From: an uncultured delta proteobacterium
Lineage (GTDB): Bacteria; Myxococcota_A; UBA9160; SMWR01
Direction of reading: 5' to 3'
NCBI GenBank assembly: GCA_963832165.1
Contig: CAWHTE010000002.1
Location: 64,001 to 128,000, forward strand
Length of the DNA stretch: 64,000 nt
How positions within the stretch are numbered: position 1 is the stretch's first letter; each line of letters opens with the position of its first letter. Under the pieces are notes generated by a model that saw nothing but the letters and a program-made list of their open reading frames with translations, ran no database searches and had not been told where the DNA came from. The position numbers and the translations under genes are program-made. Below are positions 20,690 through 62,534 of this stretch, one piece after another.

Positions 20690-23600
20690 TCAATGGCGCT
20701 CTGCGCACAGCTCCGCGAAGCGCGCGAGTGCGGCGTCGACGGCGTCGATGTCGAAGCGCTCGATGCGCGCGATCCGCTCGCCGTCGGTCAGGATCAAGGT
20801 CACGAACGTGGTCTCGAACGGCCCGCCGTCGCGCGTCCCGAACTGCCTCGCGACGTGCACGTGCCCGCGGCCGTTCCAGGTCAGGATCCGTACCGCTTCG
20901 TTTGCGTAGTTCGGCGCGAGCTCGGCGAACGCCTGGAGCGAGGCGATCCATTGATCGCGATCGAGCGACCCCAACACGCCCGGCGTGCGGCGGTCCCCGA
21001 TCACGGCGTCCTCGGTGAGAAGGCTGCGGAAGGCCTTCCAATCGCGGTTGGCGCTCGCTCGGTAGAGCGCGGCGATCGGCGCCTGCCCCCCGACCTCGGC
21101 GGCTTCGCCTGCGGCGAAGCGATCGTACATCTCTGCGAACGCGGCGCGGCGGTCGTCGGAGTCGAAGAGGATTTGCGCCCGGAGCCGCCCGTCGCCATCG
21201 ACCTCCGTGACCGTGATCCGCTCGAGGTCGAACGCACCCTCCGAAGGCGCGCGCGTCCACACGTCGTGCTCGACGGCGACCCGATTCCCCGCCGTGGCGA
21301 TCAACTTTCGGGTCAGGTGGGCCCCCTCCGACTGGAGGAATCGCAGGCTCGCGATCCCTTGCTCCATGCCGCCCGCCACCAGTGCCCGCTTGCTGCGATC
21401 CTCGTAGCAGAAGTCGTCGGCTGCGAGCGCACGGAGCCCGTCCCAATCGCTGGCGGACCACGCCTCGAAGTTTCGATCGCGCGCGCGCGACGCCGCGTTC
21501 GCCGGGATGTGCAGCGGATCGGGGCGCAGCTCTTCGAAGCGCGCGCGTGCGCGGTCGAGGTCTTCGGGCTCGAAGATCTCGAGTCCCGCGATGCGGCCGG
21601 ACTCAGTGAATGCGAGGTTGAGGTAGACCGACTCGAAATCGCCACCGTCGGCGAGCTTGCCAAAGGTATGGGCTACCGAGAGCTGGGTGCCCTTCGATCG
21701 GGCGAGTGGATAGAGGGTCTCGAACATCACCTCCTGGGTCTCCTGGAAGAGCGCGGCCAGCGACGCGACGTAGGCATCGGCCCCCTCGATGCGCCCCGCG
21801 CCGGTGCGGCGGTGATCGTCGTACACGTAATCGTCGGGCAGCGCGGCGCGGCAGCGCGCGAGGTCGCGATCGGCAACTCCGCGCATGAACTCGTACGCGC
21901 TCTTCGGCAGCCAACTCGCTGACCGGTCGAGCATCTCCAGACTCGCGGCGCGGCGGTCGTCGGGGTCGAACCCGATCACCGCCAGGAAACGGCCGTCCGC
22001 GTCGACTTCGAAGACTGTCAGCTGCTCGGCCTCGATGGGTGCCTCTTCGACACCGGTAAAGAGATGCCATTCGAGCATCAGCCGGTCGCCCGCAGTCGCC
22101 AGGAGCCTTCGCGAGACTCGCGATCTGGCGATGTATCTGGAGCTCGCGAGCCACGTCTCGCGATCGCCCGTGAGGCGGATCAGGCGCCGTCGATCGTCGA
22201 ACACCATCTCCGGTGCACATAGCGCGGGGAGCGCTTCCCAGTCCCGAGCCTCCAGGCGCTGCATCCAGCGATCCAGCGCGTGTGTCGCGACGTTGGGCGG
22301 GATGCGCAAGGCGGGATCCGCCTTCGGCTCCTCCCGCCCTACGTGATCAGGTACGTCATGAGTAGGGCGGGAGAGCGAAGCGATCCCGCCATCGGCCCCG
22401 GCGGTCACCTCGTCGAAGCGCGCGAACGCTTCGGCTTCGCTGTTCGCGTCGAACCACTCGACCCGCGAGACGAGACCCTGCGCATCGAAGGTCCAGAGTC
22501 TCAGGAATTCGAGCTCGAACGCTCCGCCGCTGGCGCGGCTGGTCCCCGACATCGTCGACTGCACCAGCAGTGCGTCGGGCTCGAGCGCGAGCACGTCGTC
22601 GATCCGGATGAATTCGTCCTCGAACAGGTCCGCGCCGATCCGGATACCGCGCCCCACGCTCTCTCGACCCCGCCCGCGGCCGGCCGAGATGACCGCTCGG
22701 TGATCGTGGAACTCGACGTCGTCGGCGAGGCTCTCCACCATGCGCTCGCGATCCAGCTGTCGGGAATGGACGGCGAGCGTCCGCGCGGTCGCCGCGGCGC
22801 GCTCGCGCTCGGAGCCTTCGGGCAGGAGCTCGGCATAGCGCTCGTACATCCGCACGACCGCGTCGCCGAGCTGATGGGCGGCGAAGCGCTCCTGGCGCCT
22901 CCGGCGCCCCTGCGCGTCGACCTCGGTCAGCAGGATCTGTTCGACCTCGTAGGGGCCGAGGTCGAGCGGGCCTCGCGCGAGGCCGCTCGCGGAGGCCTTG
23001 AGACGGGTGAGGCCGAGCGCGTCCCCGAGCGAGGCGAGTCGCTCCCCCACGAGCGAAAGGTCCTGCGCGCGCCAGAACGACTTCCTGATCCGGAGGTCGC
23101 CCTCGCGATCGAAGGTGGTGCCGGTGGTGTGATCGACGACCTCCACGTCGTCGGTCTGCAGCGTGGAGAGCGCCTGCTCATCGCGGGAGGCGATCGCCTC
23201 ATGGGTGCGGCGCATGTTCGCGAGCGCGGCATTCGTTCGCACGCGCCGCCTCGCGCGCCGCGGCTCGGGAGGCGCCGTGAGCTCGTCGAAGCGCGCGAGC
23301 GCCGCGTCCGCGTGCTCGGGATCGAACTGCTCCCAGCGCGTGATCTGCCCCTGGGCGTCGAAGGTCAGCAGCTGGCACAGATGGCGCTCGAACTCGCCGC
23401 CGCTGACCTTCAGCGTGCCGGAGTTCACGGCGCGCACGAGCAGCGCGTCGGGGCGCGCGCCGAGCACGTCGTCGATGCGCGTGCTGAGGTTCTCGAGCAG
23501 CTCGATGAACGCGCGCAGCCCCTGCTGCACGGCCTCGGCGCCGCGCAGCGACCCCACGCCCACCGCGCGCTGGTCGCTGTACTCGATGTCGGGCGCAAGC

Positions 23601-26600
23601 GGCCAGCGCTCGGGCGTCGGCGGCCCGAGCAGCACGGCGACCGCGCGCGCGATCGCGGCTGCGCTCTCGCGCTCGGCGCCGTCGGGCTGTCGCTCCGCAT
23701 AGCGCTCGTACAGGCGCACGGTCGCGTCGCCGAGTCGGTCGGCACGGAACATCTCGCCGCGTCGACGTCGCCCGTCGGCGTCGACCTCGATGATGAAAAC
23801 GTTTTCGTAGTCGAACTCGCCGACATCGAAGACGGGCCCGGACGCGCCGCTGCCCGACGCAAAGGTACGACTCAGCGCTAGTGATTCGCCGAGCGTGGCC
23901 AGAAGCTCGTAACGGTGCACGAGGTCGCGGGTGTTTCGGAACTGGCGGCGGTAGAAATCCAACAGTCCAGCATGGCCGAACTCCGCGCCGGTCGTGTGAT
24001 CGACCATCTCGCAGTCTTGCGCGAACAGCGTCTCGAGCGCGTCGGCATCTCGCGCCGTGATCGCTGCGCTGACGCGTGCGCTGTTCGCAGACGCCGCGTT
24101 CGGCGACACACGGCGCCGGACGGCGGGATCCGCGCTCAACTCGTCGAAGCGCGCGAGCGCGTCAGCGTCGCGGTCGGCGTCGAAGTGCTCCGCGCGTAGG
24201 AGGCGGCCATCGCTTCCGAAGACTTCGAGCAGGATCCACTGCCGCTCGAACACGCCGCCCCCCGTCCGATCGATTCCGGTGAGCGTCCGCTTGTGGAGCA
24301 GCAGACCGGGCCGAAGGCCGAGGACGTCGTCTGTTCGTACCGTGAAGTCGGTGGCGAGTTCGAGCCAGGCGCGCAGGCCCCGCAGCCCCTCAACGACTCC
24401 ACGCGCGGAATGGGTGGCCAGGAAGCGGTGATCGATCGTTTCGATCGAGGGTGACCAGGTGCTCGCATAGCGGTCGGGGTCGAACGGTCCCATCGACACC
24501 GCGACCGAGCGCGCAATCGCCGTGGCGCGCTCGCGCTCGGGACCCTCTGGCAAGCGCCCGGCGTAGCGCTCGTAGAGGCGGATGGCAGCGTCGCCGAGGT
24601 GATGCGCGGGAAAGATCTCGTCTCGCTGTCGGCACCCCTCGGCGTCGACCTCGACCAAGCGGACGAGCTCGCTCTCGAACGCGCCCACGTCGAACCGGCG
24701 GCTCGCGAGCCCGGTCCCCGACGTCGCATAGCGACAGAGCGCGAGCGACTCGCCTAGGACGGCCAGCGGCTCGCCTCGGTAGACGAGCCCCTCGACGTTC
24801 AGCGTCCTGCGGAGCATCTCGAGCCACCAGGATCGTCCATACGTCGCACCGGTGGTCTGATCGACGACCTCGATGCGATCCGATACGAGACGAGCGAACG
24901 CGTCGGTGTCGTGTGCCTGGACCGCTGCAATCTCGGCAGCGGCGTTCGCGGTCGCCGCATTCGGCTGCACGCGGCGGGCGGGGTGCGCCGGCGACGCGCT
25001 GAACTCGTCGAGCCGCGCGAGCGCGTCGGCGGTGCGGTCGGGCTCGAAAGCCTCGCACCGCAGTCCCAGGCCGTCGCGGCCGAAGAGCCAGAGCAGGAGA
25101 TAGGGCCGCTCGTATCGGCCGCCCGTGTCGCGGCTCGTGCCCACGTGAGTAATGCGGACGAGGAATGCCTGGCTCGTGAGCGCAAAGATGTCGTCGACGC
25201 GCAGCTTCATGCTCTCGACAAGGTCGAGCATCGAGCGCCAGTGCTCGACCATCGCCTGCTTGCCGCGACTCGACCAGGTTCCGAGCGTTCGGTGGTCGAC
25301 CGTCTCGAATGCGGGATCGACTGCGTCTGTCAGCCGATCGAGGTCGAACCGGCCCAGCTGCGCGGCGACGAGTCGCGCGGACGTGGCAGCGCGCGTGCGC
25401 TCGGGTCCCGTGGGAAGCGCTTCGGCGTAGCGCTCGTATAGCCGGGCGATCGCGTCGCCGAGCTGATCGGCGGCAAAGCACTCGCTCCAGCAGCGCCGGC
25501 CCTCGGCGTCGACCTCGGAGAGGTCGATCTCGCTGCGCTCGTAGGCGCCGACATCCCACTGCCGGCTCGTGAACGCGCTCGCGGAGTAGAACACGCGGCA
25601 CAGCGCGAGCGAGTCGCCGAGCGTCGCGAGCGGCTCGTGGCGCCGGAACGGGTTCTCGGAGACGAGCATCGAGCGCAGCGAGTAGACGACTCCATCGCGG
25701 TCGAAGTGGGTGCCGGTCGGATGATGCAGATACTCCACGCGGTCCGCGAACAGCCGCGCCCAGGCGTCGGCATCGCGCGCTTCGACCGCGGCGTCGGCCC
25801 GCGCCGCGTTCGCCGTCGCCGCGTTCGGCCGCACGCGGCGCGCGGGCGGAGCGGCGGTCAGCGCATCGAAGCGCGCGAGCGCGTCGGCCTCGCGGTCGAC
25901 GTCGAACCACTCGAAGCGCGCGATCCGACCGTCGCGTGCGAAGACCGTGAGCAGCAGGAACCTTCGCTCGAACGCGCCGCCGCTCCCGCGATCGGTGCCC
26001 GAGAACGTGCGCCGCATCAGGTGCGCATCGGGTTGCAGCGCGAGGATGTCGTCGATCTGCGTCGTGAGATCGGTCGCGAGGTCGCGCCAGGCGCGCAGGT
26101 GCTGGAGCACCGCAGCGGCCCCCTGCGCCGAATGAGTCGACAGCATGCGGTGATCGACGGCCTCGACTCCGGGCGCGAAGGCGGTCACGGCGATGTCGGG
26201 GTCGAACAGGGTCAGCGCGACCGAACGTGCGATCGCGGCGGCGCGCTCGCGCTCGGGGCCGTCGGGGAGCAGTTCGGCGTAGCGCTCGTAGAGACGGGCG
26301 ACGCCGTCTCCCAGCTGATTCGCGGCAAACAACTCGACGCGCCGCGCTCGTCCCGCAGGATCGGCGTCGACGACGTCGAATTGCTCGGCTTCGTACGGGC
26401 CGATATGCACATCCTTGGCGTCGATTCCGGAAGCGGAGGTCGACTGGTGGCATAGCGCGAGCGAATCGCCGAGTGTCGCCAGTGGCTCGATCTGGTAGCT
26501 CAGATCCCGGAAGCGCCACATCCCGCGACACCAGCGAAGCGATTCGTCCCGAGTCAGCTCCGCGGCAGTGGTGTGATCGATAGTGACGTGATCGTCGGTG

Positions 26601-30961: not shown

Positions 30962-32877
30962 CTACAACCCGTACGCCTCCTGCAACACGCACAGGCTCGT
31001 CATCGTGAGCATCATCCCGAAGTACCCGCTGCGCGCTGTCGCGTTGCTCGCGGGCGGCGGGTTCGCGATGAACTGCGCCACCGCCTGCGGCTCGAAGAAC
31101 GGCAGCGCCGCGATCCGCTCCGGCCGCAGCGTGTCGAGCGCGAGCTCGCGCATGCGGCCCTTCAGCTCGAACGGCGCGAAGAACGGGTGCTTCTGGCGCT
31201 TGTACACCGTCTCGGTCAGGAACGGCTTGGCCGCCTCGCGCAGCGCGTACTTCTCGACCTCGCCGCGCACCTTCATCGACACGGGCATGTCGCACACGAG
31301 CTCGACGAGCGGATGGTCGAGGAACGGCACGCGCCCTTCGATCGAGTGCGCCATCTCGGAGCGGTCGCCCAGGAAGTTGAGCAGCTTGTTCGGGAAGAAC
31401 GCCTTGAGCCAGAGCCACATCGACTGGTTGAGCGGATCGCGCGGTGAGCCCTCGGGCAGGTCGATCCGGTTCAGGAAGACCTGATAGGGGTCGCGTCCGC
31501 CGAACTCGGCCGCGAACCCCGCCGAGAGCAGCGGCAGCACGCGCTTGCCCGCGATCGCGCGATTGAGGATCCACGTGGGCACGTAGCCGAGCACGCGCTC
31601 GACCGCGTCGAGCGGCAGCGCGTCGCCCTCCGAGGTGCCGAAGTGGCCGAGGTGGCGGTTGCGGTCGCGCAGTGCGGCGATCCGCGCGCGCGCCGTCTCG
31701 GCGTCCTGCCCGGGCACGCCGTAGCGGATCATGTCCTCGCGAAAGAACGGGTAGCCGCCAAGCAGCTCGTCGGAGCCCTCGCCCGTGAGCACCACCTTGA
31801 AGCCGAAGTCGCGCACCTTCTCGGAGAGCAGGAACTTCGCCACCGCGTTCGTGTTATGCGTGATCGTCTCGCTGTGCCAGACCTGGTCGGCGAAGTGGTC
31901 GGCGAGCAGGTCCTCGGGCATCCGGAACACGTGGAAATTCGCGCCTGCGCGCTTGGCCATCTCCTCGGCGATCGGGCCCTCGTCGAACGGCCCCTGCTCG
32001 AACGCGATCGTGAACGCCTCGAGCGGCGCCTCGTGGATCGCGGAGGCGATGCCTAGCACCGAACACGAGTCGAGCCCGCCCGAGAGGTAGACGCCCACGG
32101 GCACGTCCGCGCGCAGGCGCAGCCGGATCGACTCGACCAGCGCGTCGCGCAGCCGCTCGACGTGCTCGGCCACACTGCGCTCGGGCGCGGGCCGCTCCGC
32201 GGTCGGGTACTGCAGGTCCCAGTACGGACCACCTGCGTGCGCTGTCGCGTCGCGAGCAGGTAGTGCCCGGGCGGCACTTGGTACACGCCGTCGAACATCG
32301 TGCGATCGCCGTCCGCGATCATCATGAGGTCCTGGAACACCGATTCGTGATCCCAGCGCGCGGGCACGCCGGCCGCGAACAGCGCCTTGGCCTCGGACGC
32401 GAGCGTGAGCACGTCGCCGGTCTGCGCGTAGAAGAGCGGCTTGATGCCGAACCGGTCGCGAGCGGCGAACAGGAGTCCCGCGCGCTCGTCCCAGAGCGCG
32501 AACGCGAACTCGCCGCGCAGCTCGCGCAGGCAGTGCGTGCCGAGCTCCTCGTAGAGGTGGATCAGGATCTCGCTGTCGGAGCCCGTGCGCAGATGATGTC
32601 CGCGCGCGGTGAGCTCGCGCTGGATGCGCTCGAAGTCGTAGAACTCGCCGTTCACGACCGCGTGGATCTGTCCGTCCTCGTTCGAAAGCGGCTGATCGCC
32701 GGTCGCGAGATCGATGATCGAGAGCCGTGCGTGGCCCATCCCGACGCGCCCGTGCGGCGCGACCCAGACGCGGTGGCCGTCGGGTCCGCGGTGGTACAGC
32801 TCGTGCGTCGCGCGCCAGAGCGCCTCTTCCTTCACAGTCCGACCGTTGCGCGAGAACTGGGTGACGATGCCGCACAT
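30962..32877 (-). CDS. asnB: Asparagine synthase (glutamine-hydrolysing)-family amidotransferase, copy 1; one frameshift at ~32229
   Basis: MCGI N-terminal Ntn Cys, HRGPD, NGEFY, RDRFGIKPL, YLSGGLDS, TGEGSDE, RVPFLD. Confidence 0.88.
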
Positions 32878-32900
32878 ACGGGGTCTCCTTTGCCCGTGAG

Positions 32901-32944
32901 CGTGGCCGAATTCACACCGGCCCAGGTGTGAAGTACTTCACACC
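32901..32944. promoter_or_regulatory. CRP/FNR-family box plus a weaker second site between the divergent asnB genes
   Basis: GGTGTGAAGTACTTCACACC perfect 20-bp palindrome at 32925-32944 (TGTGA-N6-TCACA); CGTGG-N6-TCACA at 32901-32916. Confidence 0.75.
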
Positions 32945-33013
32945 CGCCCCGCGGAATCGGGCAGGATGCTCCCGATCGGGCTGGGGCCCGCCCCTTCCCG
33001 GACGGAGGCGACC

Positions 33014-36446: not shown

Positions 36447-36472
36447 GCGGCGACCGTACCGATCGCCGCCCC

Positions 36473-36507
36473 GTAGGGCGGGAGGAGCCGAAGGCGGATC
36501 CCGCCTT
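36473..36507 (+). repeat. REP copy, intergenic
   Basis: Exact 35-bp copy. Confidence 0.9.
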
Positions 36508-50784: not shown

Positions 50785-50809
50785 CGCGGGCCCTCCTTGG
50801 GGCGGGGCC

Positions 50810-50853
50810 ATTCTAATGGGTACGCCAGTTCCTGGGGTGTGAAGGGGTTCACA
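50810..50853 (-). promoter_or_regulatory. CRP-type box plus TAGAAT -10 element for giant 2
   Basis: TGTGAAGGGGTTCACA at 50838-50853; TAGAAT at 50815-50810; 22-nt gap. Confidence 0.75.
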
Positions 50854-53900: not shown

Positions 53901-56900
53901 GAGCGGGCGCGACGGTGTCGGTGCCTCTGTGAGCTCCTCGAAGCGCGCTAGCGCCTCGTCGCGGCGGTCGACGTCGAGCCACTCGACGAAGGTCGCGAGA
54001 CCGTGGGCGCCGAACACCCGCAGCGACAGGTATTGGGCCTCGTAGGCGCCCCCACTCGCGCGGTCCGTTCCGCTCTCGTGCCATTCGATCAGGAGCCTCT
54101 CGGGCCGCACCGCGACGACATCAACGACGTCGAAGGTCAGGTCCGCGACGGTATCGAACCAGATGCCGATTCCGCGGTGTACCGCGTCTGCGCCGCGCGT
54201 CGTTCCGAGCGACACCACGCTGCGCCGGTCGCGGAAGATGACGTCGCGAGCGAAGATCGTGGCGAAGCGTTCGGCGTCCGCAGGTCCGTGCCACACCGCG
54301 AGCGTGCGCGCGGTAGCCGCTGCGCGCGTGCGCTCGGGGCCTTCGGGCAGCAGCTCGACATGGCGCTCGTACAGCCGCACGAGCGCGTCGCCGAGCCGGT
54401 CGGACGCGAAGATCTCGCAGTGCGTCAACCGACCCGCGGCGTCGACGTCGAAGATGGTGATGTTCTCGAGCTCGTAGGGTCCGACGTCGACGGTCTCCCC
54501 CGTGAATCCGCTCGCAGCGGCGCTCGTGCGACACAGCGCGAGCGAGTCGCCGAGCGTGGCGATCGGCTCGGTGCGGTGGACCGGATCGCGCGCGCGCAGG
54601 AGCGAGCGCCAGCTGTCCAGCATGCCCTGCCGGCCGAACTCCGTGCCGGTCGAGCGATCGACGAACTCGCAGGGATCGGCGAGGGTTTCGTCGAGCCCCT
54701 GGAGGTCGCGCGCCGCGATCGCGGTATCGAGCCGCGCCGCGTAGGCGCTCGCGGTGTTCGGCCGCACGCTGCGTCTCGGCGGCGTCGGCTCGGCAACCAG
54801 CGCGTCGAAACGCGCGAGCGCGTCGTCCGCGTGCTCGGCGTCGAACTGCTCGACGCGAGACACGAGGCCCGCGGCATCGAAGATCCAGATGAAGATGAAC
54901 CTGCGCTCGAACGTGCTCCCGCTCGCGCGCAGGGTGCCCCTGCTCGTGGATCGACACAGAAGGGCGTTGGACCGCACATCGATCACGTCGTCCATCCGGA
55001 AGACGACGCCGTCAGCGATCTCAGCGAGCTTTCGCGCCCAGTCGAGAAATGCCGCGGCACCCCGGATCGAGCCGATTCCGACCAGGCTCCGGTGGTCGAC
55101 CCACTCGACATCCGGCGCGAAGAGCGCTGCGCTTCGCGCGAGATCCATCGGCCCCGTGATGACCGTGATCGCGCGCGCAATCGCCAGGCATCTCGCGCGT
55201 CCGGGGCCGGGCGGCTCCAGCTCGGCGTAGCGCGCGTACAGGCGTGCGATCGCGTCGCCGAGGCGATCTTCCGAGAAACTCTCCGCTCGCGAGCGGCGGC
55301 CCTCGCGGTCGGCCTCGATCAGCACGAGGTGGTGGTTCTCGTAGGCGCCGACGTCGAAGCCCCCGCTCTCGAGAGCGCTCGCGGACGCGGACACGTGCAG
55401 GAGTGCGAGCGAGCCGCCGAGCGTGGCCACCGGCTCGTGTGCAGTCTTCGGATCGCGCGCCTTCATGTGGATCTGGAACGAGGTGAGCGCGCCCTGGCGA
55501 TCGTACGTGATGCCGGTCGGGTGATGGATATGGAGCGTATCGTCCGTGAACACCTGCTCGGCCGCAGACAGGTCGCGTGCTGCCATGGCAGCGTCGTAGC
55601 GCGCGCCGTTGGCAGTAGCGGCGTTGGGCCGCACGCGCCGCGCCCGGCGGCGCGGCGCGGCGGTGAGCTCGTCGAAGCGCGCGAGCGCCTCCTGCTCCTG
55701 GGTCAACTCGAAGAGCTCGAGGCGCGTCTGCAAGCCGTCGCTGCCGAAGACCATCAGGGAGATGGAGGGCGATTCGAAGCGACCGCCTCCGTCGCGCGCG
55801 GTCCCGGCAAACATCGTGCGCACGAGCAGCGCACTCGGACCCAGCCCGAGGATTTCATCGATGTGGTTCTCGATGTCGTCGGCGACCGCGAACCAGGAGC
55901 GGAACATCTCCAGCACGGCCTCGGGGCCGCGCGCGAAGAAGCTGCCGAGCTTGCGGCGGTCCACCATCTCGATCGCGGGCGAGTAGGCCGCCGTATAGCG
56001 CTCGAGGTCGTAGCCGCCCACCACGACCGCCCCAACCGAGCGCGCGGTCGAGGCAGCGCGCGCGCGCTCGGGGCCTTCGGGCAGGATCTCGGCATAGCGT
56101 TCGTATAGGCGCGTGACGGCGGCGCCGAGGCGGTCCGGCGCGAATCGCTCGGCGTAGCGCTGAAGGCCTTCCGCGTTGCTCTCGCTCAGCGTGAACATCT
56201 CGTTTGCGAAATCGCCGACATCGATCTGGGAGCTCTTGACTCCGCTCGCGGAGGTCGCGATCCGAGCCAGTGCGAGCGAGTCGCCCAGCGTTGCGAGCGG
56301 CTCGACCCGGTAGGACAGGTCGCGGCCCGCGAGCACGGCGTGCAGGCTGGCGAGGATCTCGCGCCGGCCGTAGGTGATGCCGACCTCGTGATCGAGCACC
56401 TCCGTGTCGTCGCTGTAGAGCGCAGCGATCTCCTCTTCGTCTCGTGCGGCGACTGCGCGCTCCACGCGGGCCAGGTGCGTGGTCGCCCCATTGGGTCGCA
56501 CGCGGCGCGCAGGGCGGGCCGACGGCGAGGTCGACGCGTCGAAGGCCGCGAGCGCCGCGTCGATCTGATCCGGCTCGAACATCTCGAAGCGCGCGAGCCG
56601 CCCGTCGGGGCCCGCGACCGAGAGCGAGAGGTAGGGGCGCTCATAGGCGCCGCCGCTCGCGCGCAGGGTGCCGAAATTGGTCTGGCGGACCAGGCACGCA
56701 TCCGGTCGCAGCGCGAGGATGTCGTCGAAGCGGTTCGCGGCGTCCGGGGCGAGCTCGAGCAGCGATCGAACCGCGTTCAGGAAGAGCTCCGGTCCGCGCC
56801 CTTGTCCGGCCCCGACGGTGCGGTGATCGAAGCTCTCGATGTCCGGCGCCAGGCTCGCGGCATACCGCTCGGTATCGACCCGCCCCACGTTGTTCGCCAC

Positions 56901-59900
56901 CGCGCGTGCGAACGCCGCCGCGCGCGTGCGCTCGGCGCCTTCGGGAAGCAGCTCCGCGTAGCGCTCGTACAGGCGCACGATCGCGTTGCCGAGCCGGTCC
57001 GCGCGGAAGCGCTCGGCGCGCAGCTGATGGCCGTCCGAGGAGACCATGTTCAGCGTGATCTCCTCGCTCGAGTAGCTCGCGACGTCGACCTCGCCACCGG
57101 CCACGCCACTCGCGGACACCGAAAGGCGCGTGAGCGCGAGCGAGTCGCCCAGCGACGCGAGTGGCTCGACGCGGTAGGACAGGTCGCGCGAGGCGAGCAA
57201 CGCACGGATCGCGGAGATCGTGTCGCGCTTGACGAAGGTGGTACCCGCGAGATGATCGACGACCTCCGTGTCGTCGGGGAAGAGCTCGGCGCACGCTGCG
57301 ATGTCTCGCGCGGCGACCGCGCTCTCGAGGCGGGCTTGCTGGACCGTAGCCGTGTTCGGCCGCACGCGGCGCGCGGGGCGCGCCGGCTCGGAGGTCAGCG
57401 CGTCGAAGCGCGCGAGCGCGTCCGACTCGCGGTCGGGATCGAACTGCTCGGCGCGCGAGACGAGGCCATTGGCATCGAAGATCCAGATCGACACGAACGG
57501 CCGCTCGAAGGAGCCACCGCTCGCGCGATCGGTGCCCGACGACGTGGCGCGGAACAGCAGCGCGTCGGCGCGCAGGTCGATCACGTCTTCCAGGCGGATC
57601 GCCGCCTGGTCGGCGGCGTCCGTGAGCGTGCGGATCCACTCGAGAGCGGCGGCGGACCCCTTGATGGATCCCATGCCGATCAAACTCCGGTGATCGACCC
57701 ACTCGATGTCCGGCGCGAGGATCGGCGCGCGGAAGCGGTCGAGATCGACCGGCCCGGCCAGCGCCGTGATCGCGCGCGCGATCGCGGCGGCGCGATCGAT
57801 CGCAGCGGCCGTCCTCTGTTGTTCCGCATGGCGCTCGTAGAGCCGAACGATCGCGTCGCCAAATCGATCGGGGGAGAACATCTCGATGCGGCGGTACCGC
57901 CCGGCGGCATCGGCCTCGAGCAGGAGAATTCGCGCGCCGTCGTAGGCGCCCACATCGAAGCCGCCCCCGGCCACCGACGGCCCAGACACGGAACAGCGAC
58001 AGAGCGCGAGAGAGTCGCCGAGCGTTGCGAGCGGCTCCTGCCTCACGAGTCCTTCGGCACGCAGCAGGATGCGCATCGTGGCGAGCGATTCCGCGCGGCC
58101 GTGGGTCACTCCCGTGGCGTGGTCGATGATTTCGACGTCGTCGGCCTGCAGCGCAGCGTAGGCGTCGACGTCGTGCGCGGCATAGGCCGCGTCGACGCGC
58201 GCGGCGACCGCGGTGGCCGCGTTCGGCCGCACGCGGCGCGAGGGGCGCGCCGGCGGCCCGGCCGTCAGCACGTCGAAGCGCGCGAGCGCGTCGGCCTCGC
58301 GGTCCGAGTCGAACACCTCGAAGCGCGAGACCCGGCCATCGGCCCCAAACACCGCGAGGGAAACGACATCGCGCTCGAACGCGCCGCCGCCGTCGCGCGC
58401 GATTCCCGAGAACGCCCCCCGGAATACGTACGCGTCGGGGCCCAGGTCGAGGATCTCGTCCGTGCGGATCTGCAGCTCGTCGCCGAGCCCGGTCCAGGAG
58501 CGGAAGTTCGCTTCCACAGCGACCGATCCACGCGCGGAGGAAGTGCCGAGGATGCGATGGTCCGTGAACACGATGTCCGGGGCGAGGCCGGCGGCATAGC
58601 GCTCGGGATCGTAGGGACCGAAGTGGGGGAAGCGCGCGATCACCGCCGCCCGCGCGCGCTCGAGGCCTTCGGGCAGCGATTCCGCATAGCGCTCGTAGAG
58701 ACGCGCGACGGCGTCGCCGAGCCGGTCGGCAGCAAAGCTCTCGAAGCGCGATGCTCGCTGCCCTTCCGCGCCGGCTTCGACCACGACGATCGCGGGCATC
58801 TCGTACGGGCCCACGCTCGCGTGCTGCCACCGGTTGCCGCTCGCGGCGATCGATTGGCGACACAGCGCGAGCGACTCGCCGAGCGTGGCGAGCGGCTCGA
58901 GCCGGTACGAGAAGTCGTCGCTGCGCCAGAGGCGGCGAGTGCTTTCGAGGGTGGCCATGCCGCTGTCCCAGGAGAGGCCGGTCGGATGGTGGACCACCTC
59001 GAAACCCTCGATCGCCGCCAGCATGGCGTCTTCGTCGCGAGCTCGGACCGCGGCTTCGATGCGCGCGGCGGCGGCGGTGGCGGCGTTCTCGCGGACGCGG
59101 CGGCGCGCGGGGGGTGCCGGGGTCGGTCCGCGCAAGGCGGGATCCGCCTTCGGCTCCTCCCGCCCTACGTGGCCGTGAACACCGGCGTCCACCGCAACGT
59201 CATGAGTAGGGCGGGAGACCGGAGCGATCCCGCCATCCCGCGCGCCCTCGCGCGCGCGCTCGACGAGCAGCGTCGCGCCCTTCGTCTCCCAGAGCGAGGT
59301 CGCGCGTGCCTCCTCCGCCGCGGCTTCGCTGCGCCGGCCCGCCGCGCGCAGCGCCGCCGCGAGCGCGGTGCGCGCTTCGGCGTGCCAAAGCAGCGCGTCG
59401 GTTGCCGCCGCGGTCTCGACGGCCGCGCGCGCGAGCTCGACCGCCCTCTCCGGCTCGCCGCGGCGCGCGAGCGCCTCGGCGCGCACATCGCGCCAGGCGA
59501 TCGCGGAGTGCAGATCGTCGCCCGCGAGCGCCTCGCTCTCGTGAGAGATCGCCTCGGCTTCGGCGGCGCGATCCTGCGCGAGCAACGCGCGGCCAAGCTG
59601 AGCGGCGCATTGCGCCGCGTCGCTGCCGAGCCCGAGCTCGCGCATGCCGTCGTACGCGGCGCGCAGACAGCGTTCGGCCGCGACGGGGTCGCCTTCGATC
59701 AGCTCGATCTCGCCCGCGAACTGATCCGCCTGGAGCAGGCGGTGGGTGATCCCGAGCTCCTCGACCATGCGTCGCGACGAGGCGATCATGCGGCGCGCGG
59801 CCTCGCTGCGACCGCGCAGCGCCTCGAGCACGCCCTGACACCGCAGTGCGACGGCTTCCACGGCCGGTGAGCCCTGCGTGATGCGCAGAACGCGCACGAC

Positions 59901-62465
59901 GTCGAGGCAGCGACCGCTCGCACGTGTCACAGGCGAGGGACCCCAGAGCGCCGCGAGCGGTGCACCCGAGAGCACCGCATTCGCGCGGCGGCGATCGCCC
60001 GCGCGGCGCGCCGCCGCGAGCGCGCGGTCGAGCGCGGCTTCACACGCGCCGACCTTTCCGAGCCGCGCGAGCGCGATCGCGTGCACGAAGTGCGCCTTTG
60101 CCTCGCCGGCAGAATCGCCCGCGGCCGTGAGCTGCTCGGCTGCGGCGGACACCGCGTCGGCGCTCGTGCGCAGCGTCTTCGGATCGGTGAGCGCGGCGCG
60201 CTCACCAGCGAAGCACGTGTGCCACGCGCGCAGCCGATCCGACTCCGCGGTGAAGCGGCCCAGCTCCTCGATCGCACGCTCCGCCGTGGCGACCTCGCCC
60301 GCGGCGAGCAGCGCCTCGCACCAGTCGAGCGCGAGCTCGGCACGCGCGGAATCGTCCGGCTCGAGGCGTTCGAGCGCGCGGCCGAGCAGGCTCGCCGCCA
60401 CGGGCACGTCGTCGCGCGCGAGCGCGCGGCGCCCCGCGGACGCGAGGTATTTCGACGCGCGCTCGCCGAGCGCGCGGCCCTGCGCATCGATCGGCCCGAG
60501 CTCGGAGAGGTGCTGGTGCGCCTGCTCGAGATGCCAGCCGATCGTCTCGTCGTGCGGCGGCTCGTCGCCGACGCGGCCGACGACCCATTCGGCGAAGCGA
60601 GCGTGCAGCTCCGCGCGCGTGTTCTTGAGCAGGCGGCGGTAGGCGGCGTCGCGGATCAGCACATGGTGGAAGCGCAGCGCGGGTTCGCCGAGGAACCATC
60701 CCGTGTCCGATTCGATCAGCTCGGTGCGGCGCAGGGCTTCGAGCTGGCGGTCGAGATCGGCGATCTCGCGCGGGAGCAGCTCCTTCACCGCCGCGCGCGA
60801 GAACTGGCGCCCGACGACCGACGCGCGCTCGAGCACGGTGCGCTCCTCGGGCCGCAGCTTCTCGATGCGCGCCGCGAGCAACGCCTGGATCGTCGGCGGC
60901 ATGTCCAGCGCGGCGAGCTCCACGCCGACCGTCCAGTGGTCTTTCTCGCGCACGAGTGCGCCGTCGTGCACGAGCATGCGCACGAGCTCACCCACGAAGA
61001 GCGGGTTGCCCTCGCTCGCCGCGAGCACGCGGCCCGCGACGGCCGCGGGCAGTTCATCTGCGCCGATCGCGTTCGCGGCGAGCTTCATCGCGGCGAGCGC
61101 GTCGAGCCCGGAGAGCGTCACGACCTCGGAGACCAGGCCGCCCGGAGTCGCGAGCGAGGAGCGCGTTTCGCGCAGCTCGGGCCGCGCCGCGACGAGCACG
61201 AGCAGCGGCGCGTCCGCCGTCCACTGCACGAGGTGCTCGGTTAGATCGAAGAGCAGCGGCTCGGCCCACTGCAGGTCGTCGATCGCGAGCACGATCGGTC
61301 GCGTCTCCGCGAGCGCGCCGAGGAACCGGCGCACGACGAAGAAGGTCTCCTCGGGCGGGGCGGGCGTGCCCGCGATCAGCGCGGCGACGCCGCTCGCGAT
61401 CCGGCGGTGCTCGGAGTCCTCTCCGGGCATCGCCGCCGCGATCGCGCTGCGCAGCGCATCGCCCGCGATCGCGTCATCGAGCTGCAGCAGCTCGCGCAGC
61501 GCTGCGGCGAGGGGTGCGAACGTGCCGCCGCCGGCCTGATCGCAGCGCGCGGTCAGCACGGTGGCCTCGTCCTGGAGTCGCCTCGCCACCTCGGCCAGCA
61601 CGCGCGACTTGCCGAGCCCGGGCGAGCCCAGGATCACCGCGAGCCGCGCGCGATGCTCCGAGATCGCATCGTCGTACACCGCGCGCAGTCGCCGCAGCTC
61701 GCTCTCGCGGCCGACGAACGGCGTGGCCGACGCGCCCGCGGGCCGGTCGAGCGACACGACGCGGTAGGCGGCGACCGCCTCCCTGCGGCCCTTCAGCTCG
61801 AGTGCGCCGATCGGTGCGAGCGTGACGAGCTCGGACACGAGCCGGCGGGTCGACTCGCCGATCAGGACGTCGCCGTCCTGCGCCGCGTGCTGGAGGTGTG
61901 CCGCGACGTTGAGCGGGTCGCCGATCCCGGCCGCGTAGTCGTCGGAGACGACCACCTCACCCGTGTTCACGGCCACGCGCAGGCCGACGCGATCGGCGAG
62001 TTGATTCTCCGCGCGGAACTCGCGGAACGCCTCCTGCACCGCGACCCCCGCGCGCACGGCGCGGATAGCGTCGTCCTCGGCCACGTTCGGGATGCCGAAC
62101 GCGCACATCACTCCGTCGCCGAGCAATTGCACGACGGTGCCGCCGTGCGCCTCGATCGGCGCGCGCACGGCGCGGTGGTAGCGGTCCATCATGCGACTGA
62201 CGGCCTCGGCGTCGAGCCGCTCCTGCAACGCGGTCGAGCCGATCAGGTCCGCGAACACGATCGTGACGACTTTGCGCGCGGGGGGCTGCCCGGCACCGGC
62301 ATCCACTGGACGCGCGTCGAGCGTGGCGCCGCACGCCTCGCAGAATCGCGCATCCAGCGGGGCCTCAGCGCCGCATGCCGGGCAGCGTGGCGCGAGTGCG
62401 TTTCCGCAGCCCGCGCAGAATCGAGCAGCCGGGCGGTTCGCCCGGCCGCAGCTCGCGCAATCCAT
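50922..62465 (-). CDS. Giant protein 3 (3847 aa): Zn-ribbon - class III cyclase - STAND ATPase - TPR-like - ~9.5 tandem paired SnoaL/NTF2-like units
   Basis: Same motifs; uninterrupted ORF; GGAGG upstream. Confidence 0.88.
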   Translation of the reverse strand: MDCASCGRANRPAARFCAGCGNALAPRCPACGAEAPLDARFCEACGATLDARPVDAGAGQPPARKVVTIVFADLIGSTALQERLDAEAVSRMMDRYHRAVRAPIEAHGGTVVQLLGDGVMCAFGIPNVAEDDAIRAVRAGVAVQEAFREFRAENQLADRVGLRVAVNTGEVVVSDDYAAGIGDPLNVAAHLQHAAQDGDVLIGESTRRLVSELVTLAPIGALELKGRREAVAAYRVVSLDRPAGASATPFVGRESELRRLRAVYDDAISEHRARLAVILGSPGLGKSRVLAEVARRLQDEATVLTARCDQAGGGTFAPLAAALRELLQLDDAIAGDALRSAIAAAMPGEDSEHRRIASGVAALIAGTPAPPEETFFVVRRFLGALAETRPIVLAIDDLQWAEPLLFDLTEHLVQWTADAPLLVLVAARPELRETRSSLATPGGLVSEVVTLSGLDALAAMKLAANAIGADELPAAVAGRVLAASEGNPLFVGELVRMLVHDGALVREKDHWTVGVELAALDMPPTIQALLAARIEKLRPEERTVLERASVVGRQFSRAAVKELLPREIADLDRQLEALRRTELIESDTGWFLGEPALRFHHVLIRDAAYRRLLKNTRAELHARFAEWVVGRVGDEPPHDETIGWHLEQAHQHLSELGPIDAQGRALGERASKYLASAGRRALARDDVPVAASLLGRALERLEPDDSARAELALDWCEALLAAGEVATAERAIEELGRFTAESDRLRAWHTCFAGERAALTDPKTLRTSADAVSAAAEQLTAAGDSAGEAKAHFVHAIALARLGKVGACEAALDRALAAARRAGDRRRANAVLSGAPLAALWGPSPVTRASGRCLDVVRVLRITQGSPAVEAVALRCQGVLEALRGRSEAARRMIASSRRMVEELGITHRLLQADQFAGEIELIEGDPVAAERCLRAAYDGMRELGLGSDAAQCAAQLGRALLAQDRAAEAEAISHESEALAGDDLHSAIAWRDVRAEALARRGEPERAVELARAAVETAAATDALLWHAEARTALAAALRAAGRRSEAAAEEARATSLWETKGATLLVERAREGARDGGIAPVSRPTHDVAVDAGVHGHVGREEPKADPALRGPTPAPPARRRVRENAATAAAARIEAAVRARDEDAMLAAIEGFEVVHHPTGLSWDSGMATLESTRRLWRSDDFSYRLEPLATLGESLALCRQSIAASGNRWQHASVGPYEMPAIVVVEAGAEGQRASRFESFAADRLGDAVARLYERYAESLPEGLERARAAVIARFPHFGPYDPERYAAGLAPDIVFTDHRILGTSSARGSVAVEANFRSWTGLGDELQIRTDEILDLGPDAYVFRGAFSGIARDGGGAFERDVVSLAVFGADGRVSRFEVFDSDREADALARFDVLTAGPPARPSRRVRPNAATAVAARVDAAYAAHDVDAYAALQADDVEIIDHATGVTHGRAESLATMRILLRAEGLVRQEPLATLGDSLALCRCSVSGPSVAGGGFDVGAYDGARILLLEADAAGRYRRIEMFSPDRFGDAIVRLYERHAEQQRTAAAIDRAAAIARAITALAGPVDLDRFRAPILAPDIEWVDHRSLIGMGSIKGSAAALEWIRTLTDAADQAAIRLEDVIDLRADALLFRATSSGTDRASGGSFERPFVSIWIFDANGLVSRAEQFDPDRESDALARFDALTSEPARPARRVRPNTATVQQARLESAVAARDIAACAELFPDDTEVVDHLAGTTFVKRDTISAIRALLASRDLSYRVEPLASLGDSLALTRLSVSASGVAGGEVDVASYSSEEITLNMVSSDGHQLRAERFRADRLGNAIVRLYERYAELLPEGAERTRAAAFARAVANNVGRVDTERYAASLAPDIESFDHRTVGAGQGRGPELFLNAVRSLLELAPDAANRFDDILALRPDACLVRQTNFGTLRASGGAYERPYLSLSVAGPDGRLARFEMFEPDQIDAALAAFDASTSPSARPARRVRPNGATTHLARVERAVAARDEEEIAALYSDDTEVLDHEVGITYGRREILASLHAVLAGRDLSYRVEPLATLGDSLALARIATSASGVKSSQIDVGDFANEMFTLSESNAEGLQRYAERFAPDRLGAAVTRLYERYAEILPEGPERARAASTARSVGAVVVGGYDLERYTAAYSPAIEMVDRRKLGSFFARGPEAVLEMFRSWFAVADDIENHIDEILGLGPSALLVRTMFAGTARDGGGRFESPSISLMVFGSDGLQTRLELFELTQEQEALARFDELTAAPRRRARRVRPNAATANGARYDAAMAARDLSAAEQVFTDDTLHIHHPTGITYDRQGALTSFQIHMKARDPKTAHEPVATLGGSLALLHVSASASALESGGFDVGAYENHHLVLIEADREGRRSRAESFSEDRLGDAIARLYARYAELEPPGPGRARCLAIARAITVITGPMDLARSAALFAPDVEWVDHRSLVGIGSIRGAAAFLDWARKLAEIADGVVFRMDDVIDVRSNALLCRSTSRGTLRASGSTFERRFIFIWIFDAAGLVSRVEQFDAEHADDALARFDALVAEPTPPRRSVRPNTASAYAARLDTAIAARDLQGLDETLADPCEFVDRSTGTEFGRQGMLDSWRSLLRARDPVHRTEPIATLGDSLALCRTSAAASGFTGETVDVGPYELENITIFDVDAAGRLTHCEIFASDRLGDALVRLYERHVELLPEGPERTRAAATARTLAVWHGPADAERFATIFARDVIFRDRRSVVSLGTTRGADAVHRGIGIWFDTVADLTFDVVDVVAVRPERLLIEWHESGTDRASGGAYEAQYLSLRVFGAHGLATFVEWLDVDRRDEALARFEELTEAPTPSRPLPANAATAHTARVDEAIALRNTDALVELVAERAVILDHKTGTTFDREGWIASFRSLMKAREPQSLHEPLAILGDSLGLFRRTISATGFAGATLDVGSYLIDELDVLEADEQGRIAYAEVFAVDRLSDAIAKLYERYASEQPEGAERRRATAIARAIPVMLAPLDPDAIANLLALDVQYRDHRLLGWGSARGLVTVRRGVRDVAESITFTATPTDEILALRPDALLVHRTLEGEQRGVPFRSHPVALYVFDANGRLAQWENYDADERDAALARLDELVAPVAPPRLVENAATRSLDQFVQAWAARDWEAVRAVYAPEMRMSDRRSIVQLEFDLEEQLEFQRPLFEMKSSRVVAEIIATRGDRLALARMCTEVADGSIGPSEISSLAVWQVNPAGKAVAGARFDLDARDEAYAELDARYGAGEATEHPATWTALASLRGVLEAGEWGRIMALFSPDLFAEDHRLFGWGSANSPAEYVAAVRSLSDVAPDVTLRVDHVVLGDRAALFVASWIGSQAAGAFEIPVVTVFGFSRNGQVNRAHHYSLEQIAAARARFAEVEAPAVPARAVESAATRSIERFALAWSARDWKAVTALYAPGFRYIDQRSLMQLDIGLEHWFEFARPLFDMATSRISSEILATRGERLALSRMLVEVAGGSIGSASIGPSEIDSLIVCEVDAHGQRVANVRFDPNALDAAYAELDRRYAVGEAAEHPEMWAAISSMQSAISERNWGALPSRFSPDYIREDHRDEGSGTTHGSKLIVDSVRTLIKLRPDVSTRADHVELADRAALVVTHWVADELEDPFEVHSTNVFALGPDGTIGHDDIYDPEQLSAARARFAELATPRSPTAELDARYATGEAAAFPHIAGTMHAFLDAFALRDWDALAARMAPDLVVEDHRLLGWETVRSTADYVRTLHSLVDLAPDTQLRLDHAEMSQRGLIWIGAWVGTRDGGAFETPWITVSEHDARGIVLRFDQYDLEQLPAARARFEELRAKRE
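59134..59236. repeat. Inverted REP doublet in frame in giant protein 3 (TPR-to-repeat linker)
   Basis: Canonical 59134-59168 (-) plus variant 59206-59236 (+); translated GGIAPVSRPTHDVAVDAGVHGHVGREEPKADPAL. Confidence 0.9.
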
Positions 62466-62491
62466 CCGGGAGGCCCTCCGGTGGCGGAGCC

Positions 62492-62534
62492 ATTCTAATA
62501 GGTCTGGTCACCCCGGGGTGTGAACGGGTTCACA
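62492..62534 (-). promoter_or_regulatory. CRP-type box plus TAGAAT -10 element for giant 3
   Basis: TGTGAACGGGTTCACA at 62519-62534; TAGAAT at 62497-62492; 21-nt gap. Confidence 0.75.

Follow-up and report, generated by a model that had tools for sequence, protein, structure and literature searches.

Mycobacterial proteins of the Rv0386 type begin with a class III cyclase at the N-terminus, continue with an AAA_16-type ATPase and a helical region, and end in a LuxR-type HTH. Two papers place the HTH of Rv0386 at the terminus, after the cyclase–ATPase module (PMC9552081, PMC3466318), and one of them attributes an alternative substrate-binding mode to this enzyme (Castro et al. 2005, cited in PMC3466318). 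The same cyclase–AAA_16–helical module recurs with other termini in the NCBIfam family TIGR03903, "TOMM system kinase/cyclase fusion protein", and in a Saccharothrix protein. STAND/NLR-like ATPases, e.g., the MalT type and antiviral Avs, are built from an effector, a P-loop switch, a helical arm and variable C-terminal repeats (TPR, WD40 or LRR solenoids). In addition, ECF sigma factors (SigJ; ECF41/ECF56) carry one regulatory SnoaL_2 domain at the C-terminus (PMC5766207, PMC7730460).

Here we describe three giant proteins encoded in a 64-kb stretch of DNA from an uncultured soil bacterium (the window, i.e., the whole stretch analysed), which share the domain order of the Rv0386 type. Compared by description rather than by sequence, the giants carry 8–12 double NTF2 units instead of the HTH and add an N-terminal double zinc ribbon. 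Residues 64–825 of a giant align with positions 275–1043 of the 1267 in the TIGR03903 model (E 2e-59). However, the score of 201 bits falls far below the cut-off (705.75) and excludes membership in that family, and the giants lack the N-terminal kinase and the TOMM context and possess an NTF2 array. They resemble STAND/NLR-like ATPases in architecture, with a conserved core and a fast-diverging C-terminus, whereas each of their repeats is a globular pair of NTF2 domains, ~280 aa long, rather than a solenoid. As in the ECF sigma factors, SnoaL_2 sits on a regulator, but in a dose of 16–24 domains on a giant cyclase–ATPase.

Three giant genes and their core

The three open reading frames are intact and co-oriented on the minus strand (3384, 4462 and 3847 aa), with the P0003 gene 110 bp upstream of the P0002 gene. 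Their features are listed below, where A to D denote the unit types of the array.

20690..30844, minus: giant paralog 1 (P0001, 3384 aa), core + AAAAAACD (ORF, Pfam, unit typing)
30695..30844, minus: P0001 double zinc ribbon, aa 1-50 (Pfam DZR E 1.5e-10, Zn_Ribbon_1, Zn_ribbon_3)
30152..30646, minus: P0001 class III cyclase domain, aa 67-231 (Guanylate_cyc 55.7 bits; alignment to CyaB 3r5g; column counts)
29573..30094, minus: P0001 AAA_16 P-loop ATPase, aa 251-424, GSPGLGKS / DDLQWAE (Pfam E 8.5e-22; invariant columns)
27590..29572, minus: P0001 helical region, aa 425-1085, linking ATPase and array (sub-threshold TPR_12 match of 22.5 bits)
20702..27589, minus: P0001 array, 8 double-NTF2 units, 6 A, 1 C, 1 D (unit cuts, Pfam, AF2, fold matches)
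37423..50811, minus: giant paralog 2 (P0002, 4462 aa), core + AAAAAABBBBCD (ORF, Pfam, unit typing)
50098..50592, minus: P0002 cyclase domain, aa 74-238, His at the transition-state Arg (Pfam, CyaB 3r5g alignment, column counts)
49516..50040, minus: P0002 AAA_16 ATPase, aa 258-432 (Pfam)
37435..47529, minus: P0002 array, 12 double-NTF2 units, 6 A, 4 B, 1 C, 1 D (unit cuts, Pfam, AF2, fold matches)
50922..62465, minus: giant paralog 3 (P0003, 3847 aa), core + AAAAAAABB + half B unit (ORF, Pfam, unit typing)
61767..62273, minus: P0003 cyclase domain, aa 65-233, His at the transition-state Arg (Pfam, column counts)
61197..61721, minus: P0003 AAA_16 ATPase, aa 249-423 (Pfam)
50934..59144, minus: P0003 array, 9.5 double-NTF2 units (unit cuts, Pfam, unit typing)

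The codon-position GC of the three frames is typical of coding DNA, with GC3 at 0.87–0.88, and a fourth paralog is found on a different contig. A preliminary description, made from the sequence alone, had proposed three co-oriented paralogs with a common core of zinc ribbons, a class III cyclase and a P-loop STAND-type ATPase, which the reading frames and the Pfam assignments confirm. This core spans ~1090 aa, and all three proteins match DZR/zinc-ribbon models, Guanylate_cyc (55.7–58 bits, cut-off 21.9), AAA_16 (79–81 bits, cut-off 32.6) and SnoaL_2 (230–254 bits); Pfam detected no HTH in any of them. Because no solved STAND protein matched the giants by sequence at E<=10, the name STAND rests on Pfam AAA_16 and on the motifs GSPGLGKS and DDL(Q/H)WAE. 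The TPR-like helices of the preliminary description stand as a helical region, which is probably TPR-like in P0001 (aa 425–1085) given one sub-threshold TPR_12 match; it had no PDB match by sequence. For the same region of P0002, a language-model look-alike search returned TPR_12/AAA_16 clusters of the Atlas (0.95–0.98).

Conservation was counted over 121 family members. The metal-binding Asp residues of the cyclase are present in 120 and 121 of these, the transition-state Asn in 118 and the transition-state Arg in 112. In the ATPase, the Lys of Walker A and the Asp-Asp of Walker B are invariant (121/121). Both domains thus look functional in most members. P0001 keeps the metal Asp, Asn and Arg residues. 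In P0002 and P0003, as in 7 of the 121 members, His occupies the Arg position, and their cyclases may thus be weak or regulatory. The substrate-specifying position, usually Lys, is Gln in all three giants (82 Q, 38 K and 1 H across the family), to be compared with the alternative substrate-binding mode of Rv0386. The corresponding residue of Rv0386 is also Gln.

NTF2 arrays and their divergence

Cutting at the recurrent ...ARF(D/A)xL ends gave 8 units for P0001, 12 for P0002 and 9.5 for P0003, each of 265–295 aa with a half unit of 151 aa, the same counts as first proposed. NTF2-like Pfam families match 29 of the 30 units at E<=0.01; among the 29 full units, the matched stretches cover both halves in 17, one half only in 11 and neither in 1. 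AF2 models of P0001 unit 5 (23273-24130) and P0002 unit 8 (40699-41526) reached pLDDT 96.8 and 95.5. Foldseek placed the two-domain NTF2 enzymes MonBI-MonBII and Lsd19 on top (E 1e-13 to 1e-14), with ketosteroid isomerases ranking after them. The best VIA fold match of a modelled unit gave Z 15.4 and rmsd 2.5 over 117 residues, and many of the folds matched by VIA are small-molecule binders or enzymes, e.g., steroid isomerases, epoxide hydrolases and designed cortisol and digoxigenin binders. Pfam, the two predicted models and the fold matches together indicate that each unit is a pair of NTF2/SnoaL_2-like domains, in support of the proposed total of ~59. Elsewhere, NTF2 domains also occur as protein-binding modules and enzymes.

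The giants belong to a large, unstudied family: scoring of the candidates gave 412 giant and 2584 shorter matches, almost all of them in uncultured MAGs from soil, and we found no published description of the family. New are the four unit types, whose A-B-C-D order is fixed across 121 proteins, the range of 1–19 units per protein, the fast divergence of the array and the patchy distribution. Over 38 homologs, mean identity is 75.3% for the core and 46.2% for the best-matching units, which bears out the proposed contrast between core and array and is what one would expect of a conserved machine whose input diversifies. Almost all related loci lie in MAGs of uncultured organisms, which carry the label Binatia, delta proteobacterium or Myxococcota. 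The suggestion that multi-SnoaL giants occur in mycobacteria found no support among these loci; the one cultured actinobacterial relative found, from Saccharothrix (33% identity), contains only the cyclase and AAA_16.

A proposed stand-alone switch and its alternatives

From this arrangement we infer a switch, its oligomerisation, a cue and a product, and we assign a probability of about 0.5 to a STAND switch that works alone, takes its input through the NTF2 array and has a cyclic nucleotide as its output. Each giant would be a self-contained cytoplasmic signalling protein, in which the AAA_16 ATPase and the helical arm form a nucleotide-driven switch, the C-terminal chain of double NTF2 units serves as an input or regulatory region, and the cyclase, whose active sites need pairing with a second cyclase domain, is the output. 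At rest, the array and helical arm would keep the ATPase closed. A cue bound by the NTF2 units, in the simplest case hydrophobic small molecules, would release the ATPase, and ATP-dependent oligomerisation would then bring the cyclase domains together. The resulting cyclic nucleotide would be read by cNMP-binding proteins encoded elsewhere; the genome contains 9 places with cNMP_binding above cut-off, all outside the window. No conserved partner gene was found among the 149 nearest-neighbour ORFs of related loci, which fits a single-polypeptide device. The helical arm, rather than the array, could be the real sensor.

The following genes lie between paralogs 1 and 2, together with a methyltransferase gene.

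30962-32937, minus: asnB homolog 1, frame change near 32227
32966-34948, plus: asnB homolog 2, passes TIGR01536

The preliminary description joined the three receptors, this AsnB pair and the methyltransferase into one system, with the enzymes modifying or detoxifying the sensed compounds. Two homologs do lie between the paralogs, but they are not a co-oriented pair, since the second is on the plus strand. This second gene passes TIGR01536, a general model for asparagine synthases. The minus-strand gene is co-oriented with paralog 1, 117 bp upstream of it, and the same arrangement recurs at one related locus, L050, where asnB is 80% identical. However, absence of this linkage from homologous loci had been named beforehand as grounds for refutation, and asnB occurs near only 2 of 71 related loci (L050 and, as a fragment, L068, both close relatives), the methyltransferase near 0 of 71, and Asn_synthase in 0 of the 149 neighbour ORFs. 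The interval looks like a patchwork, since two toxin-antitoxin-like cassettes and a dispersed repeat in five copies lie in and next to it. The one-system proposal is thus largely refuted and hardly credible, and the asnB genes, the methyltransferase and the cassettes are unrelated neighbours. The cassettes also bear on an improbable reading of the giants as NLR-like conflict sensors, whose NTF2 units bait invader proteins or toxins and whose cyclase raises an alarm read by effectors elsewhere. PIN or MazF genes are nearest neighbours at 5 loci (6/149 ORFs), although toxin-antitoxin genes are common in such genomes. Holders are patchily distributed, with 4 among the 201 genomes of the phylum sample and none among the 4 from the same family, which is compatible with an accessory role and also with ordinary signalling. 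They carry several paralogs, often in tandem, with fast-diverging arrays. Cores are 60–78% identical between MAGs labelled as different phyla, but gene transfer is not established by this because MAG taxonomic labels are unreliable, and core conservation of this degree is unusual in an arms-race gene. PADLOC models of the Pycsar cyclase PycC match at E 1e-11 to 1e-13, which is generic class III cyclase homology and no stronger than the general Pfam cyclase model; no Avs, NLR or other STAND defence model matched. In contrast to Pycsar, the cyclase sits in a huge multidomain context and has no adjacent cNMP-activated effector, with 1 cNMP_binding protein among the 149 neighbours.

The array itself may also be a structural or protein-binding scaffold, a stacked rod or platform that sets oligomer geometry or recruits partners while the helical arm senses the cue, which we consider unlikely yet deserving of weight. 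The strict unit order and the short inter-unit linker with near-invariant residues (N11 and A13 in type A, N10 and A12 in type B) point to a defined superstructure and not to a loose set of independent sensors, and most conserved unit columns hold Gly, Ala, Leu or charged residues, as is typical of packing. NTF2 folds do make protein–protein contacts, e.g., in the Imm-NTF2 immunity proteins (PMC3482391). However, a range of 1–19 units is odd for a structural ruler, and the units diverge much faster than the core. A catalytic array, i.e., a chain of NTF2-type enzymes (epoxide hydrolase/cyclase, isomerase or dehydratase) acting on a lipid- or polyketide-like metabolite with the core regulating or reporting flux, is very improbable. 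The best whole-unit fold matches are indeed polyether epoxide hydrolases/cyclases with two NTF2 cones (~280 residues) in one polypeptide or complex (MonBI-MonBII 9kw6; Lsd19 3rga/4rzm), and a few family members terminate in another domain, a GNAT acetyltransferase in P0074 and a 4Fe-4S domain in P0142. However, a fold match does not establish a function. Identity to the polyether enzymes is 12–17%, the mutual domain orientation differs (rmsd 11–14 Å over both domains), up to 19 units are fused in tandem to a signalling core, and no biosynthetic genes are conserved among the 149 neighbour ORFs.

As a separate observation, a REP-like hairpin element sits in frame within two of the giants, P0001 and P0003.

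22311..22335, minus: element core, P0001 linker between units 6 and 7, in frame
27591..27615, minus: element, P0001 core/array junction, in frame
59137..59161, minus: element, P0003 core/array junction, in frame

The giant genes and their cyclase–ATPase core

The three giant genes of the window are each read as a single open reading frame, as follows:

20690-30844, minus strand, P0001, open reading frame of 3384 aa
37423-50811, minus strand, P0002, open reading frame of 4462 aa
50922-62465, minus strand, P0003, open reading frame of 3847 aa

These frames stay open across 35 kb despite the broken genes next to them, and their third-codon-position G+C (0.87-0.88, in a window of about 70% G+C) follows the position pattern of the real genes of the window. 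All three proteins share one domain order and an identical Pfam set, i.e., an N-terminal double zinc ribbon, a class III cyclase, AAA_16, and SnoaL_2/DUF4440/SnoaL. The N-terminal cores, each of about 1090 aa, are closely related, with those of P0001 and P0003 being 74% and 85% identical to the P0002 core. The source assembly, a metagenome-assembled genome (MAG; 89% complete, 11 contigs, 5.54 Mb), holds a fourth paralog (locus L082, contig C10:2-12304) of at least 4101 aa with the array AAAAAABDDDD (unit types as described below), the N-terminus of which is cut by the start of its 15,082-base contig. Together, the four paralogs occupy about 47 kb, or 0.86% of the assembly, and contain about 81 NTF2 domains. 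A candidate fifth paralog on contig C7 was rejected, its 92-residue match (52% identity) being a small zinc-ribbon ORF.

The cyclase domain matches Guanylate_cyc (PF00211) with 55.7, 57.9 and 58.0 bits in the three giants, relative to a cut-off of 21.9, and matches the solved cyclase structures 3r5g (CyaB, E 2.7e-21) and 2w01 (E 1.2e-18). Residue positions were assigned by alignment to Pseudomonas CyaB (3r5g), and their conservation was counted over 121 family members; the roles given to these positions (metal-binding Asp, transition-state Asn and Arg, substrate-specifying Lys) are those of class III cyclases in general. Both metal-binding Asp residues, D82 and D126 in P0002 numbering, are invariant in the three giants and are found in 120/121 and 121/121 family members, respectively. 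The transition-state Asn is also present in all three giants (N in 118/121), and the transition-state Arg position is occupied by R in P0001 and by H in P0002 and P0003 (R 112, H 7 and Q 2 of 121 in the family). At the substrate-specifying position, the alignment places Gln in P0001, P0002 and P0003, all of which lack the canonical adenylyl-cyclase-type Lys there (Q 82, K 38 and H 1 of 121 in the family). Thus, the nucleotide product may differ from that of a canonical adenylyl cyclase. The genome has nine cyclase-domain places in total, four of which lie in the giants.

The ATPase is recognized as AAA_16 with 79-81 bits (cut-off 32.6), and carries a Walker A motif GSPGLGKS and a Walker B motif DDL(Q/H)WAE, of which the Walker A Lys and the Walker B Asp-Asp are found in 121/121 family members. 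An EGNPLF motif, which may correspond to the STAND GxP motif, is invariant C-terminal to the ATPase in the three giants. The helical region that follows gives a TPR_12 match below the Pfam cut-off, and a language-model look-alike search, which serves as a lead only, groups the ATPase-helical part with TPR_12/AAA_16 clusters. A sequence search of P0002 aa 248-1090 against the PDB returned no match at E<=10.

Fold, order and divergence of the array units

The preliminary description had counted 8, 12 and about 9.5 repeat units in P0001, P0002 and P0003, respectively, and had proposed that each unit comprises two NTF2-like domains. Cutting at a recurring C-terminal helix motif gave the same figures (8, 12 and 9.5), with unit lengths of 265-295 aa, and the two-domain proposal is borne out by sequence profiles, structure models and two fold comparisons. 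SnoaL_2 reaches 230-254 bits per giant protein. When the units were scanned singly against Pfam, 29 of 30 matched NTF2-like families at E<=0.01; the matched stretches lie in both halves of 17 of the 29 full units, in one half of 11, and in neither half of one (P0003 unit 1). Type A and type B units (112 and 83, respectively), taken both from the window and from loci related to it, were aligned, and one of each type was folded using AF2, yielding models (pLDDT 96.8, pTM 0.93 and pLDDT 95.5, pTM 0.91) in which two alpha+beta cones are linked by helices. At the top of the Foldseek ranking stand MonBI-MonBII and Lsd19, polyether epoxide hydrolases built of two NTF2 domains (E 1e-13 to 1e-14); the overall rmsd is 12-14 Å, so that the two cones are oriented to each other otherwise than in these enzymes. 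Next came single-domain matches to ketosteroid isomerases, SnoaL-like cyclases and limonene epoxide hydrolases (TM 0.6-0.78). A scan independent of Foldseek (VIA) found dozens of NTF2-like chains at Z 13-15.4 and rmsd 2-3 Å over about 115 residues, and aligned Lsd19 across both domains (Z 14.3, 222 residues). On the strength of the Pfam matches, the AF2 models and the fold matches, each unit is a predicted double NTF2 domain, which gives 59 predicted NTF2 domains in the window.

Pairwise identities sort the units of the window into four types.

Sequence identity within each unit type
Type A: 36-64%
Type B: 43-68%
Type C: 53% (one pair)
Type D: 45% (one pair)

Type A shares 21-33% identity with the other types. 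Type-profile HMMs read the arrays, from the N- to the C-terminus, as AAAAAACD in P0001, AAAAAABBBBCD in P0002, and AAAAAAABB plus half a B in P0003. Most of the 121 giant members retrieved, which have 5 to 19 units each, likewise show a run of A followed by B, C and D, with some exceptions, and the order is unchanged in shorter members with 1-4 units. The array diverges faster than the core: across 38 homologs, the P0002 core has a mean identity of 75.3%, versus a best-match mean of 46.2% for its units. The latter is about the identity found between units inside one protein, indicating that individual units cannot be paired as one-to-one orthologs. A few neighbouring units are closer to each other (64% and 68% identity), pointing to occasional tandem duplication.

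Apparent core-only members, which would make the array dispensable, were rejected as such. The short proteins concerned (P0127, P0169, P0223 and P0146, on long contigs) end in stretches that seem to be out of frame, and frameshift artefacts may account for them; among complete members of the family, the shortest convincing ones have 1-2 units.

Family, related systems and a possible switch

When proteins of 2454-7809 aa were searched with the P0002 core, 412 of the 1492 candidates scored matched at E<=0.001. Among the 120 matches listed, the cores are 62-100% identical to P0002 (62-86% leaving out P0002 itself), all 120 combine cyclase, AAA_16 and SnoaL_2 or DUF4440, and 110 have a zinc-ribbon family on record. 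The same search among shorter proteins gave 2584 matches (8000 scored). Database names are generic, e.g., 'class 3 adenylate cyclase/ketosteroid isomerase-like protein' or 'nuclear transport factor 2 family protein'. The type-A unit profile, searched against 1.84 billion sequences, matched 2819 representatives at E<=0.001 and 873 at E<=1e-30. The best 150 of these 2819 include 142 new proteins, 62 of which carry the core and 80 of which are array-only pieces; as for units in other architectures, only two of these 80 pieces have more than 150 unexplained residues. Rare variants from metagenomes have a SAM domain at the N-terminus in place of the zinc ribbons (P0225), or, C-terminal to the array, a GNAT acetyltransferase (P0074) or a 4Fe-4S dicluster domain (P0142).

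Within contigs representing one genome per species, 71 related loci were found, several per genome; nearly all belong to uncultured MAGs that carry the label Candidatus Binatia, delta proteobacterium or Myxococcota. When the same phylum was sampled evenly, with three candidates scored per genome, the core occurred at E<=1e-100 in 4 of 201 genomes (the source genome included) and in 0 of 4 genomes of the same family. The distribution of the family is patchy. Its members number thousands in soil metagenomes, and no description of a cyclase-AAA_16-multi-SnoaL/NTF2 architecture was found in the open-access or bioRxiv literature.

Proteins that fuse a cyclase to an ATPase have been described before but are poorly understood, and for most of them the input is not known. 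To such a core, the present family adds a very unusual input region, in which as many as 19 double NTF2 units, or 38 domains, of four types follow a fixed order. The 'TOMM system kinase/cyclase fusion protein' (TIGR03903 of NCBIfam) aligns with the cyclase-ATPase-helical part of the giants (aa 64-825); however, the giants score 201.4 bits against a cut-off of 705.75, and their match to the model begins at position 275, which leaves the kinase part without a counterpart. A Saccharothrix protein, at 33% identity, has a cyclase and AAA_16 with nothing else detectable. Mycobacterial Rv0386 is described as a cyclase that carries an HTH regulator at its terminus and binds its substrate in an alternative mode (PMC9552081, PMC3466318). 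In contrast to Rv0386-type regulators, with their C-terminal LuxR-type HTH, the giants show no HTH family among their Pfam matches at E<=0.01. PADLOC matches the giants to Pycsar cyclases, no more closely than homology among cyclases in general would give, and no gene for a cNMP-activated effector lies next to them; the genome has nine places with a cNMP_binding domain above cut-off, none of which is in the window.

Class III cyclase domains are active only as dimers. Given the established behaviour of STAND ATPases and class III cyclases, we infer a STAND-type switch in which a cue on the C-terminal region would open the ATPase, nucleotide-dependent oligomerisation would then pair the cyclase domains, and a cyclic nucleotide would be released to receptors encoded elsewhere in the genome. 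We give this reading about an even chance (roughly 0.5). The cue could be a set of small hydrophobic molecules, as had been suggested from the first, or a protein; alternatively, the array could be mainly architectural, and its strict order of unit types and its conserved linkers argue for a defined assembly. If ligands do bind to the units, the family would amount to a naturally occurring collection of related pockets, hundreds in number, coupled to a simple enzymatic read-out and relevant to bacterial signalling, to the evolution of NLR-like receptors and to biosensor design. If they do not, the arrays would still rank among the largest known cases in which a globular fold of enzyme type is repeated within a cytoplasmic bacterial protein.

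A role of the giants in defence is favoured by their patchy distribution, by their presence in several copies, and by the occurrence of closely alike cores under different taxonomic labels. However, it lacks an effector, and no PADLOC defence model for Avs/NLR matched the giants. A 2020 eLife survey of NTP-dependent conflict systems mentions cNMP cyclases as effectors, and NTF2 only as a ligand-binding accessory domain of a different system. A bolder and improbable version would make the NTF2 arrays the expandable panel of a new NLR-like class, in which every unit would serve as bait or pocket for its own foreign molecule (a toxin, a phage protein or a xenobiotic), paralogs would gain, lose and exchange units, and any match would trip the ATPase to raise a non-canonical cyclic nucleotide alarm, in keeping with the Gln at the substrate position. 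Were this true, globular NTF2 domains would join solenoid repeats and integrated decoys as a third kind of sensor repeat in NLRs.

Neighbouring genes and the hairpin element

Between P0001 and P0002 lie the following features:

30962-32937, minus strand, asnB-like gene directly upstream of P0001, frame change near 32227
32966-34948, plus strand, second asnB, intact, passing the general asparagine synthase model TIGR01536
34986-35786, minus strand, class I methyltransferase
35972-37269, minus strand, two toxin-antitoxin-like cassettes between the methyltransferase and the end of P0002

The receptors, the AsnB pair and the methyltransferase had been proposed to form one small-molecule-sensing system, and the related loci speak against it. 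In tblastn searches (E<=1e-10) of the window neighbours against the 71 loci, asnB was found in two, i.e., at L050, whose counterpart of the minus-strand gene is 80% identical, in a single frame and likewise upstream of a giant, and as a fragment at L068. The methyltransferase, a second methyltransferase and a BrkB-like gene were each found in 0 of the 71; more than 3 kb of upstream sequence is present in 48 of the 66 loci measured. A Pfam scan of the 149 nearest upstream and downstream ORFs of the related loci, from which one long ORF was dropped on account of its size, revealed no recurrent partner and no Asn_synthase. What it did reveal were scattered methyltransferases, PIN or MazF toxins in five loci (six ORFs), FHA-GGDEF in two, and cNMP_binding in one ORF. 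The giants are therefore free-standing genes, and their linkage to asnB and the methyltransferase is a local feature. In about a dozen of the related loci, further blocks of the family lie nearby as recurring tandem paralogs. The methyltransferase was also considered as a defence gene and rejected, since its PADLOC 'mad2' match (E 5e-17) spans only the generic SAM-binding region.

Several neighbouring genes are broken. The minus-strand asnB has its N-terminal glutaminase part and its C-terminal synthetase part in different frames. The first toxin-antitoxin-like cassette consists of HicB and a truncated HicA, which covers only the first half of its profile and is apparently frame-shifted; the second consists of DUF4160 and DUF2442. 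An acyl-CoA dehydrogenase gene (9218-10552, plus strand) contains at least two frame changes, with its N- and C-terminal domains sharing one frame and its conserved middle in another. Such breaks (asnB, HicA, acyl-CoA dehydrogenase) could reflect gene decay or assembly indel errors. Other genes in the left 20 kb of the window, too, cover only parts of Pfam profiles. At the left edge, a plus-strand gene (82-1452) encodes a PLD-family nuclease-like protein with PLDc_2 and an NgoFVII restriction-endonuclease N-terminal domain, and adjoins a LicD/methyltransferase-like ORF and an endonuclease/exonuclease/phosphatase ORF. Rfam gave no match at gathering score across the whole window.

A REP/MITE-like palindromic element, with the core GGGAGGAGCCGAAGGCGGATCC and a 7-bp stem, has 44 copies in the genome and 8 in the window, where none is expected:

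22311-22335, coding (minus) strand, in frame in P0001, at a linker
27591-27615, coding (minus) strand, in frame in P0001, at a linker
59137-59161, coding (minus) strand, in frame in P0003, at a linker
20348, 34952, 35926, 36480 and 37343, intergenic copies

Copies flank the toxin-antitoxin-like cassettes on either side, where the local G+C falls to 0.63. The in-frame copies translate as '...SRPTHDV...HVGREEPKADPA(L/F)R', and this peptide occurs in 0 of 238 other family proteins examined, which marks the insertions into the giants as recent. Palindromic elements inside Rickettsia genes provide a parallel to such in-frame insertions. As RNA, an intragenic copy is predicted to fold with -44.3 kcal/mol (z -4.1).
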